DNA of 64,000 nucleotides from Alphaproteobacteria bacterium (GTDB lineage Bacteria > Pseudomonadota > Alphaproteobacteria > Rs-D84 > SZUA-605), in NCBI GenBank assembly GCA_031549385.1, contig JAVBPW010000001.1:288001-352000 (forward strand), read 5' to 3'. The translations under genes were made by a program, and so were the position numbers. Position 1 is the stretch's first letter; every line of letters begins with the position of its first letter. The notes beneath the pieces are model-generated. The model was not told where the DNA came from. It searched no databases and worked only from the letters and a program-made list of their open reading frames with translations. Below are positions 34,466 through 36,436 of this stretch, piece by piece.

Positions 34466-34493
34466 TTGAATTTTGTTTTTCCTTGATTATAAT
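34466..34493 (+). promoter_or_regulatory. Sigma70-type promoter of aspS leader
   Basis: TTGAAT-16-TATAAT; predicted start near 34500-34502. Confidence 0.65.
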
Positions 34494-34501
34494 GGTGTTC
34501 C

Positions 34502-34670
34502 AGACGATGATGCTGCAAACACAGCGGAGTTGAAGGAAGAACAAAGCTTTAAGCTTTTATTAGAACCTTCCGGGTTTGCCCGATATAGCTTATCAAAGAC
34601 CAAAGTAAGGTGGCACCGCGAATCTTTCGCCCTTATAGTTATAAAATTTTAAAGAAGTTATGTAAGGAGC
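34502..34670 (+). ncRNA. T-box riboswitch (ultrashort Stem I, translational type) upstream of aspS
   Basis: TAAGG-TGGCACC-GCGA-atctt-TCGC-CCTTA antiterminator; K-turn GATGA/GGA Stem I; Stem II GAAGG/CCTTC; Stem IIA CGGG/CCCG; CCTTATA pairs with TGTAAGG over the SD. Confidence 0.88.
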
Positions 34671-34675
34671 TTGTT

Positions 34676-36436
34676 ATGAACAAATATAGAAGCCATACTT
34701 GTGGGCAGTTAAATGAAACTAATATTGGTCAAAAGGTTAAACTATCTGGTTGGGTTAATCGTAAACGTGATCATGGAAATTTAGTTTTTATCGATTTAAG
34801 AGATCATTATGGAATTACTCAATGTGTTATTCAAAATAGTGATAAGAATTTTGGTGTTGTTGAAACTTTAAAACCTGAATATGTTGTTTGTATTGAAGGT
34901 AATGTTGTTGCTCGTGATGCTTCTGTTATTAATGATAAAATTCCAACAGGAAAAATTGAAATTGTTATTGAAGATATTAGTATTCTTTCAACTTCTGAAA
35001 CTCTTCCTTTCCAAGTTTCTGTTGAAGAAAAAACTGCTGAAGATTTACGTTTGAAATATAGATATCTTGATTTAAGACGTGAAAAACTTCAACGTAATAT
35101 GAAGATTAGAGATTTAGTAATTAGATCTATGAGAAAAAGAATGTGGGATTTGGGGTTTAATGAATTTCAAACTCCTATATTGACTTCTACATCACCTGAA
35201 GGGGCTCGTGATTTTTTGGTACCTTCTCGTATGCATGAAGGAAAATTTTATGCTCTTCCTCAAGCGCCACAACAATATAAACAACTTTCACAAATCGCTG
35301 GGTTTGATAATTATTTTCAAATTGCACCTTGTTTCAGAGATGAAGATACAAGAGCTGATCGTGTGTTTGAATTTTATCAATTAGATATTGAAATGTCATT
35401 TGTTGAACAAGAAGATATTTTTGCTGTTGGAGAATCTGTTATCCCAGAAATATTTAAAGAATTTGCAAATGGAAGAACTGTTGATCCTAATATCCCAAGG
35501 ATATCTTATGATGAAGTTTTGGAAAAATATGGAACAGATAAGCCTGATTTGAGAAATCCTATTATAATTAAAGATGCTTCTGAAATATTTAAAGATTCTG
35601 GTTTTGGAGTATTTGCTTCTGCTGTTGAAAAGGGACAAGTTGTTAAGGCTATTATTGCTCCAGCATCTTCTGATAAACCTCGTTCATGGTTTGATAAACT
35701 TGGGGAATTTGCTATTGAGATTGGTCTTAAAGGACTTGCTTATATGGTGTTTACTGAAAATGAAGTTAAAGGACCAGTTGCTAAGAATTTAGATCAAGAG
35801 CGAATCAATAAAATTAAAGAACTTTGTGGTGCTTCAACCGGAGATAGTATATTCTTTGTTTGTGAAAATTTAGAAGCTGCACAAAAAGCTGCTGGTAAAG
35901 TTAGAATTAGATTAGGTGAAGATTTAAATTTAATTGATAAAAATGATTTTAAATTTTGTTGGGTAGTAGATTTTCCATTCTTTGAACTTGATAGTGAAAC
36001 TGGTACAGTTGGATTTTGCCATAACCCGTTTGGTTTAAATCAAGGTGGAATTGAAGCTTTAAAAACACAAGACCCATTGACTATTAAAGCTTATCAATAT
36101 GATATGGTTTGTAATGGAGCAGAAATTTGTTCAGGTGGACTTAGAAATTTTGATCAAGAGGCTATGAAAATAGCATTTGCTATTGCAGGATATGATGAAG
36201 AAACTGTTAAAACAAAATTTTCTGCACTATGGTTAGCTTTCCAATATGGTCCTCCTCCAACAGCTGGATGTGCATATGGTGTTGATAGAATCGTTATGAT
36301 GCTTTCTGATGAACCTAATTTAAGAGAAGTTATTTTGTTCCCTATTAATCAAAAAGGACAGGATTTGATGATGAATGCTCCGATTGAGGCGACAGAAAAG
36401 CAATTACGTGAATTGCACATTAAGTTAAGAAGATAG
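34676..36436 (+). CDS. aspS: Aspartate--tRNA ligase, probably non-discriminating (Asp/Asn)
   Basis: [13 protein letters not shown] (His typical of ND enzymes), [24 protein letters not shown]; start ATG 34676 after SD AAGGAG. Confidence 0.97.

Follow-up and report, generated by a model that had tools for sequence, protein, structure and literature searches.

The window analysed here, a stretch of 64,000 nucleotides (nt) covering positions 288,001 to 352,000 of contig JAVBPW010000001.1 (assembly GCA_031549385.1, Alphaproteobacteria bacterium), contains an aspS gene for a bacterial-type aspartyl-tRNA synthetase (AspRS) of 586 amino acids (aa), together with an upstream leader that is the subject of this work. 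The gene matches NF001750 with 788.8 bits (cut-off 443), and its product is the sole AspRS of the genome. The gap upstream of aspS, between a minus-strand open reading frame (ORF) starting at 34410 and the start codon, measures 265 nt and accommodates a promoter-like sequence, a series of short helices and a Shine-Dalgarno (SD) sequence (Table 1). Judged from its alignment to the known family and from covariation, this leader is a real, heavily shortened T-box riboswitch. An earlier inspection of the letters without database searches (hereafter the sequence-only reading) had placed the promoter, Stem I, Stem II, Stem IIA, the antiterminator and the SD at the same positions. At the Rfam gathering threshold, the window contains five tRNAs and nothing else. 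Two small ORFs of 93 and 125 aa, without Pfam match, lie 3' of aspS on the same strand (36566-37221, +) and could be co-regulated with it.

Table 1. Coordinates, in positions of the window, of the aspS leader elements and associated genes
Feature	Position	Strand	Details and basis
Sigma-70-like promoter	34466-34493	+	TTGAAT-16-TATAAT; 10/12 consensus positions
Ultrashort Stem I, 29 nt	34503-34531	+	RF00230 posterior '*' at kink-turn (K-turn) and Stem I base; covariation
Stem I lower helix, 3 bp	34503-05 / 34529-31	+	GAC / GUU
Stem I K-turn	34506-10 opposite 34527-28	+	GAUGA opposite GA
Stem I upper helix, 5 bp	34511-15 / 34522-26	+	U-GCUG / CAGC-G
Stem I apical loop, 6 nt	34516-21	+	CAAACA
Predicted specifier AAC (Asn), then conserved purine A34521	34518-34520	+	Register from orthologous loops; tRNA-Asn(GUU) with G73 present
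Stem II	34532-34570	+	Outer helix GAAGG 34532-36 / CCUUC 34566-70; inner helix AAGCU/AGCUU
Stem IIA hairpin and conserved tail	34571-34589	+	CGGG-UUUG-CCCG, tail AUAUAGC; RF00230 IIA and CGUUA segment, high posterior
Stem IIA helix	34571-74 / 34579-82	+	CGGG / CCCG
Short purine-rich linker replacing Stem III	34590-34605	+	UUAUCAAAGACCAAAG; RF00230 alignment
Discriminator (antisequestrator)	34606-34635	+	RF00230 positions 184-216, posterior '*'
Helix A1	34606-10 / 34631-35	+	UAAGG / CCUUA
T-box bulge, 7 nt	34611-17	+	UGGCACC, between helices A1 and A2
Helix A2	34618-22 / 34626-30	+	GCGAA / UUCGC
Proposed sequestrator	34629-37 / 34661-70	+	GC-CCUUAUA / UGUAAGG-A-GC; covers SD; shares CCUUA with A1
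SD	34664-69	+	AAGGAG, six nt before ATG 34676
aspS, bacterial-type AspRS, 586 aa	34676-36436	+	Pfam tRNA-synt_2, GAD and OB domains
tRNA-Asp(GUC) gene	52948-53024	-	G73, G1-C72; other AspRS substrate; AAC specifier does not match

The host genome is small (931 kb, ~30% G+C, with an estimated completeness of 97%), and the DNA of the window occurs in an invertebrate-gut metagenome run from which it may derive. The proteobacterium-like host of the sequence-only reading proves to be alphaproteobacterial by NCBI record titles. The best named relatives of its AspRS (54-60% identity) come from gut metagenome-assembled genomes (MAGs) labelled 'Alphaproteobacteria bacterium', Paracaedibacteraceae, Rickettsiales and other Alphaproteobacteria, and AspRS sequences of Lentisphaerota, Fibrobacterota and Kiritimatiellota are found at a similar distance. 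In an AspRS tree of 94 rows, the window protein belongs to a clade with 99% support whose 15 rows are all of its order; within it, an identical row is shared by genome G055, from the same order, and the MAG 'Alphaproteobacteria bacterium isolate RGIG5789' (L035). The 'uncultured Alphaproteobacteria bacterium' MAG L045, which bears a GAC version of the leader, branches outside this clade. Elsewhere in the genome (G000:C2:66626-66796, outside the window), ARAGORN predicts a tRNA with anticodon CUA ('tRNA-Pyl') beside an unassignable tRNA-like gene; the prediction could be a mis-call or could point to an amber suppressor.

Anatomy and conservation of the leader

Searched with the Rfam T-box model RF00230 in permissive E-value mode, a 341-nt stretch containing the leader gave a match at 34498-34637 (+) to model positions 1-219, with 45.8 bits and an E-value of 3.7e-9, and the same model recovered only the aspS leader (E 2.4e-9) when run on all 931,143 bp of the genome. 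High posteriors accompany the alignment of the K-turn, the Stem I base, Stem II, Stem IIA and the discriminator. By contrast with the canonical Firmicutes-type element that the model represents, the leader has 2 nt where the model has 72 distal Stem I positions and another 2 nt in place of 19 Stem III positions, and it is the deletion of these two regions that makes the score so low. Six other Rfam matches in the leader (STnc240, CRISPR-DR21, PISRT1, TUG1_1, snoR30 and SpR19) had E-values between 0.56 and 6.3 and were rejected as chance. The sequence-only reading had proposed a T-box with a specifier in the apical loop and without distal Stem I, and had named an RF00230 search and covariation among related leaders as the ways to check it; both came out in its favour. 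It had noticed neither the missing Stem III nor the toggling of relatives between Asp and Asn codons.

Four promoter-like sites were counted in the 500 nt scanned (1.4 +/- 1.2 in shuffled sequences), and the one listed in Table 1 should start transcription around position 34500, only 2-3 nt 5' of Stem I, as predicted from its spacing; promoter-like hexamers directly before Stem I were also recognised by eye in leaders L115, L003, L011 and L045. Between the two helices of Stem II, the purine-rich strands AAGAACA and UUAUUAGAA make a candidate S-turn, and the strands GAAGAAC and UUAGAAC hardly vary across 14 of the 16 rows of the larger alignment described below. The tail that follows Stem IIA is the region of a candidate IIA/B pseudoknot, in which the bases of helix IIB (2-3 bp) are invariant. 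Stem III has given way to a short linker in which purine runs (AAAG..AAAG) are still present at 34594-34605; it is likewise missing from leaders L115, L011 and L166 and kept in relatives L121-L134. The bulge region GGUGGCACC is invariant among aspS leaders.

This leader is widespread in the order to which the host belongs. At E<=0.01, RF00230 matched 36 of the 61 genomes searched (window genome G000 included), none of them over the Rfam cut-off. Among the first 30 loci retrieved from the order, 26 have GGTGGCACC followed by an AspRS 55-100% identical to that of the window; at locus L011 the T-box precedes a class IIb synthetase of 28% identity, and at loci L002, L004 and L005 GGTGGTACC stands before a gene other than aspS. 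A covariance model (R1) built from six leaders of the window architecture aligned with MAFFT matched 117 of the 151 genomes of the order, namely 112/122 in family f5, 1/1 in f1, 1/4 in f2, 1/19 in f3, 1/3 in f6 and 0/1 in f4. In a separate sample of 151 genomes from the class, which spans at least 150 families and genome sizes of 0.5-5.9 Mb, either model found a T-box in three: the window genome, another genome of the same order, and G255 (1.1 Mb), the sole member of an order of its own, whose aspS leader has the loop CAAACAA. The RF00230 cut-off was reached by none of these 151 class genomes.

The consensus structure that RNAalifold derived from the six-leader MAFFT alignment comprises Stem I, both Stem II helices, Stem IIA, A1 and A2, and this alignment, which was not fitted to any structure, has compensatory changes in 18 of its 30 base pairs. 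The larger alignment of 16 leaders has changes on both sides in 22 of 30 pairs, a count inflated by its having been fitted to the model made from six of its own rows. Its cells are paired in 90.1% of cases, compared with 36-52% when the partners are slid by 1-3 columns, and none of 500 shuffles reached the observed values. Compensatory changes affect 4/5 pairs of the Stem I upper helix (on both sides), 5/5 of the Stem II outer helix (with 100% of cells paired), 4/5 of the inner one, 3/4 of Stem IIA (98% of cells paired), 3/6 of A1 and 3/5 of helix A2 (93-95% of cells paired for these two). Since the larger alignment is model-fitted and includes the six seeds, and since kin are not independent, the MAFFT result is the cleaner, though smaller, test. 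The reduced layout of the window leader is thus kept, with compensatory changes, across families of its order and in the second order represented by G255.

Codon register and the indirect route to Asn-tRNA

The six-nucleotide loop of Stem I contains four possible triplets. According to the accessible part of a review (PMC7583486), the apical loop is where T-boxes with a short Stem I carry their specifier, with a conserved purine after it. The register can be fixed by comparing the seven bacterial-type aspS leaders of the window architecture. Their loops are CAGACA (L045), CUGACA (L115, from genome G001 of the same family as the window), CAAACA (the window and L122 of G118), CAAACAA (L008 of G025 and L166 of G255) and CUAACAA (L003 of G002), so that GAC occurs in two and AAC in five leaders at the same loop position, each followed by A, the variable base being the first of an RAC triplet. 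Because orthologous leaders have GAC in this position, the codon register of the window loop is AAC, as the sequence-only reading had assumed from the window alone. The discriminator gives a second constraint. The bulge reads UGGC, which requires a tRNA with G73; in the window genome tRNA-Asn(GUU) and tRNA-Asp(GUC) end in G-CCA, whereas tRNA-Lys (two genes), tRNA-Gln(UUG) and tRNA-Thr (two genes) end in A-CCA, a distribution that agrees with the G73 pairing put forward from the letters alone. Among the four triplets of CAAACA, AAC alone agrees with UGGC. The triplets for Gln (CAA), Lys (AAA) and Thr (ACA) were discarded as specifiers, since the corresponding tRNAs have A73 in place of the required G73 and the orthologues have their GAC in the AAC register. 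Asn alone fits both the codon and the discriminator base, and comparative evidence thus gives the predicted Asn specificity of the T-box good support.

The gene content of the host supplies a context for such a specificity. Run on the genome, the asnS model gave no matches other than aspS itself and a lysS-like gene, each well short of the cut-off, and searches of this genome (estimated to be 97% complete) found neither an asnB-type asparagine synthetase nor glnS. On the other hand, gatB (540 bits, contig C1) and gatA (596 bits, contig C7, ~200 kb away) are present, both apart from aspS, which matches the expectation of the sequence-only reading that the genome would have gatCAB and no asnS. 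At a distance of 140 nt from gatB, and on the other strand, is the tRNA-Asn(GUU) gene (G000:C1:15280-16921, outside the window). The anticodon-binding domain of the window AspRS has the motif RDHG, with a His that is shared by the PDB chains 4wj3 and 5gro, both named Asp/Asn ligase, and that is replaced by Leu (RDLG) in the Thermus chains 6hhv and 1efw, named Asp ligase. Work on H31 in Pseudomonas reportedly makes this His a mark of relaxed AspRS specificity, which is also how the sequence-only reading took it when it called the enzyme non-discriminating, and the PDB comparison goes the same way. The tRNA-Asn of the genome has a U1-A72 pair and its tRNA-Asp a G1-C72 pair. According to the accessible part of PMC1635274, it is through these elements that amidation by GatCAB is confined to Asp-tRNA-Asn. 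The lack of asnS, the presence of GatA and GatB, the RDHG motif and these identity pairs together indicate that the single AspRS very probably charges tRNA-Asp as well as tRNA-Asn, i.e., that it is non-discriminating. A free 3' end on tRNA-Asn would then report a shortage of AspRS activity on this tRNA. No asnS over the cut-off was found in any of five relatives tested (G001, G002, G025, G118 and G255), so the choice between GAC and AAC does not track the presence of an asparaginyl-tRNA synthetase.

Read-out and competing explanations

The leader has no transcriptional terminator. The sole 'terminator-like' candidate coincides with helix A2, has CCTTATAGTT after it and lacks a U tract; it was rejected, in line with the sequence-only reading. 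A different read-out is suggested by the 3' strand of A1, whose CCUUAUA (34631-37) can pair with UGUAAGG (34661-67) in a duplex that extends to 9 bp with one bulged A and covers the SD. This anti-SD pairing is part of the minimum-energy fold of the leader, and when the 5' strand of A1 is blocked the fold reaches -10.3 kcal/mol, compared with -6.1 kcal/mol for the antisequestrator alone. In seven sister T-boxes that precede archaeal-type AspRS genes, an anti-SD helix between CCUUGUGUU and AACACAAAGG is clear, its energy ranging from -12.4 to -15.2 kcal/mol, a level that 10-50 of 500 shuffles also reached.

From these elements, a mechanism may be proposed. The 29-nt Stem I with its K-turn would present AAC and the following purine in its apical loop, with Stem II, the IIA hairpin and its tail standing beside it as in the actinobacterial ileS class. 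Uncharged tRNA-Asn(GUU) would pair with AAC through its anticodon, and its free 3' end (G73-C-C-A) with the UGGC of the bulge, stabilising A1 and A2 as an antisequestrator. When tRNA-Asn is acylated, the 3' strand of A1 and its flanks (GC-CCUUAUA, 34629-37) would instead pair with UGUAAGGAGC and hide the SD of aspS, so that AspRS synthesis would rise when tRNA-Asn lacks its acyl group. We assign a probability of roughly 0.65 to this reading, in which a greatly reduced but functional T-box at 34503-34670 reads tRNA-Asn and masks the aspS SD when this tRNA is acylated. For SD masking as the predicted read-out there are about two chances in three, and translational control of aspS by the T-box is plausible but unproven.

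Several results weigh against this reading, besides the model fitting and kinship that affect the covariation counts. The score of 45.8 bits is half of the Rfam gathering threshold (93), so that the leader goes unreported at the curated cut-off. Stem III of the RF00230 type is missing, and a review states, in its accessible part (PMC7583486), that an antiterminator alone, without Stem III, shows no appreciable tRNA binding. The whole-leader fold is no more stable than shuffled sequences (z = -0.30), so thermodynamic stability alone is no evidence for the structure. The anti-SD duplex, at -10.5 kcal/mol, is only slightly better than those of shuffled SD regions (-7.1 +/- 2.4 kcal/mol), which were as low in 95 of 1000 and 47 of 500 cases; the SD-occluding pairing claimed by the sequence-only reading thus exists in the minimum-energy fold, with 9-10% of shuffles equally low. 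The equivalent duplex is at chance level (67-491 of 500 shuffles as low) in the six other bacterial-type aspS leaders of the window architecture (L115, L003, L008, L045, L122 and L166) and in the archaeal-type leader L011, which means that SD masking by the 3' strand of A1 is not a conserved feature of the group. Finally, the metatranscriptome contigs of two runs from the invertebrate-gut study that holds this DNA cover no part of the leader. One 168-nt contig from these libraries is identical to aspS at 35027-35194, which documents its presence in an RNA library and is not proof of transcription.

Some of these points would fit a T-box that binds tRNA-Asn and acts otherwise than by SD masking, through RNA stability, some other pairing or termination by Rho. 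The window duplex has only a slight edge over shuffles, a significant duplex between the A1 strand and the SD is missing from most sister aspS leaders, and the leaders of family f5 have an invariant GGUGCC complementary to the bulge. Such a read-out nevertheless seems unlikely in the window, where no terminator-like hairpin with a U tract lies 3' of the T-box, helix A1 and the start codon are only 40 nt apart, and no GGUGCC-like element can be read in the downstream sequence; moreover, A1 and the anti-SD pairing need one and the same strand, as is classical for competing helices.

The specificity may be looser than the codon suggests. If the difference between AAC and GAC were tolerated as a first-position mismatch, the switch would simply report AspRS insufficiency, and several observations accord with this: G73 is shared by tRNA-Asn and tRNA-Asp and their anticodons differ at position 36 only, orthologous leaders swap GAC and AAC freely though none of the five relatives has asnS, and 47 of 49 leaders of family f5 carry two adjacent RAC (or RAU) triplets. 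A degree of tolerance also has a precedent in the lysK T-box of Bacillus cereus (AAA), which the available portions of PMC2916919 and PMC4574755 describe as partly induced by tRNA-Asn. We nevertheless hold it rather improbable that the window T-box works in this way, since an A-C mismatch in first position costs one of just three pairs, the window loop has a single in-register triplet, and the clean alternation of G and A with the rest of the loop kept looks like selection for exact codons. That the element is a decaying relic which no longer regulates a constitutive aspS might be argued from its lost distal Stem I and Stem III, its score far under the Rfam cut-off and its being the only T-box of a reduced 931-kb genome, but this is very improbable with all remaining core elements intact, the bulge GGUGGCACC invariant and the reduced layout retained, with compensatory changes, in several families of the order as well as in that of G255.

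Related T-boxes in the order and comparison with known systems

The window leader is one member of a varied family. In 49 aspS leaders of family f5 (L006-L030, L036 and L136-L165, some of them near-identical kin), the apical loop has 9 nt of the form NNU-RAC-RAC, with GAC-AAC in 32, AAC-GAC in seven, AAC-AAC in four, GAC-GAC in three, GAC-AAU in one and a single GAC in two; 13 of the 56 leader loops were read by eye and the rest by automatic hairpin parsing. The tandem loop may be a two-codon specifier, Asp plus Asn, suited to an enzyme with both tRNAs as substrates. These f5 leaders have neither Stem II nor Stem IIA, and 30-50 nt 3' of their T-box (alignment A3, columns 200-206) they contain the invariant GGUGCC complementary to the bulge UGGCACC; the resulting 7-bp pairing is the consensus choice of RNAalifold, its invariant bases offering no covariation. 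In leaders of groups g14 and g21 (L030, L153 and L156), GGUGCC(A) is itself the ribosome-binding region, e.g., GAGGUGCCAAAAUG. Its resemblance to the tRNA end G-CCA suggests a different, acceptor-mimic read-out. Many f5 loci (e.g., L015, L021 and L025-L028) have a tRNA-Thr(GGU) gene 10-30 nt upstream of their aspS T-box; no obvious promoter separates the two, an arrangement that suggests co-transcription.

Other members of the order have additional T-boxes. A second one of the window architecture precedes the gene for an archaeal-type 'aspartate--tRNA(Asn) ligase' of 434-438 aa in 13 f5 genomes (L121 and L123-L134), in G014 (L011) and in G030 (L164); the three such genes tested match NF003483 with 416-467 bits (cut-off 353). 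Their leaders have the loop CUAACAA or UAACAA (Asn) in the 13 f5 genomes and GAC in G014 and G030. Three further T-boxes have the bulge UGGU: L004 (G010) and L005 (G006) precede archaeal-type tyrS genes (NF006330, 392-396 bits), and in L002 (G001) Stem I is complete and long (90.4 bits) and a U-tract terminator is present. Classical and minimal T-boxes thus coexist in the order; a whole-genome RF00230 search found neither UGGU/tyrS-type nor second T-boxes in the window genome. One may tentatively see in all this a clade of small-genome gut Alphaproteobacteria with its own radiation of minimal aspartyl-tRNA synthetase T-boxes, a broader picture that we offer as possible rather than probable. 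In it, the specifier would be free to move between GAC, AAC and tandem RAC-RAC (a two-tRNA sensor matching a two-tRNA enzyme), the core would still work without distal Stem I and Stem III (window) or without Stem II (f5), and the read-out would have been rewired at least twice, as an A1-strand anti-SD helix and as a GGUGCC(A) acceptor-end mimic on the bulge. This wider family, with its toggling between Asp and Asn codons, its tandem loops, the loss of Stem II in f5 and the GGUGCC element, is of greater interest than the single locus.

T-boxes are textbook regulators of Gram-positive bacteria, and their occurrence in 117 of 151 genomes of one alphaproteobacterial order extends their known range. 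The accessible portions of earlier surveys confine them to Firmicutes, Actinobacteria, Chloroflexi, Thermus/Deinococcus and Geobacter (PMC3766115) and count them in two of 125 Proteobacteria, both as leuA leaders in Geobacter or Pelobacter (PMC2494555). The TBDB class II model was applied, according to the available part of PMC7778990, to actinobacterial reference genomes and to class I matches with truncated Stem I. With 0 of 151 sampled class genomes over the cut-off, the T-boxes of this order are invisible at the Rfam threshold. We found no description of T-boxes in Alphaproteobacteria, or of a short-Stem-I T-box on aspS, in the full-text literature; supplements, subscription papers, TBDB tables and RegPrecise lists may contain some.

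Translational ileS T-boxes with an ultrashort Stem I in Actinobacteria were reportedly described by Sherwood, Grundy and Henkin in 2015. The available parts of PMC7583486 and PMC10651847 give structures for those of Mycobacterium tuberculosis and Nocardia farcinica and characterise the class by an apical specifier, a K-turn, a Stem II S-turn, an IIA/B pseudoknot and SD sequestration. As far as these parts describe it, the window leader resembles this class in having a short Stem I with a K-turn and, in the apical loop, the specifier followed by a purine, no elbow-binding double T-loop platform, a Stem II with a purine-rich internal motif and an IIA/B region adjoining Stem I, a UGGN-ACC bulge with A1 and A2, and no terminator, the SD being predicted to pair with the 3' strand of the discriminator. 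It differs in its gene and codon (aspS and AAC, compared with ileS and AUC), in its alphaproteobacterial host, and in the deletion of Stem III, and its sister leaders use other expression platforms. Canonical RF00230 elements of the Firmicutes type align with it at the K-turn, the specifier and its purine, Stem II, Stem IIA and the T-box sequence with A1 and A2. The lack of so many Stem I and Stem III positions leaves it under the cut-off and so unreported by Rfam-based annotation.

An Asn or two-codon 'NT-box' was reportedly described in Clostridium acetobutylicum by Saad et al. in 2012 and 2013 (cited in PMC4206432 and PMC4574755). According to the accessible portions of PMC4052509 and PMC4574755, this tRNA-Asn T-box controls a tRNA-dependent transamidation operon, before which it lies. 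It is reportedly transcriptional, with a side-bulge specifier loop that holds overlapping Asn and Glu codons. So far as this description goes, the window T-box is similar in that it is predicted to read an Asn codon on the indirect Asn-tRNA route, with the same rationale that sensing tRNA-Asn sets the supply of non-discriminating AspRS. Unlike the NT-box, it has a single AAC in its apical loop, no GAA and no terminator, and its aspS, which encodes the only AspRS of the cell, stands apart from gatA and gatB. Given this precedent, Asn specificity alone is not new.

If it works, the window T-box sets a smaller minimum than was known for an RNA that senses tRNA, and calls into question the reported need for Stem III. 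The toggling of Asp and Asn codons among aspS orthologues would amount to a set of natural specificity swaps in a switch that tracks a two-substrate enzyme, and a core of ~133 nt with single-base specificity changes makes an attractive scaffold for engineered tRNA sensors. Set beside the known systems, the element of the window is an apical-specifier T-box, further reduced, on a new gene and in a new bacterial class.

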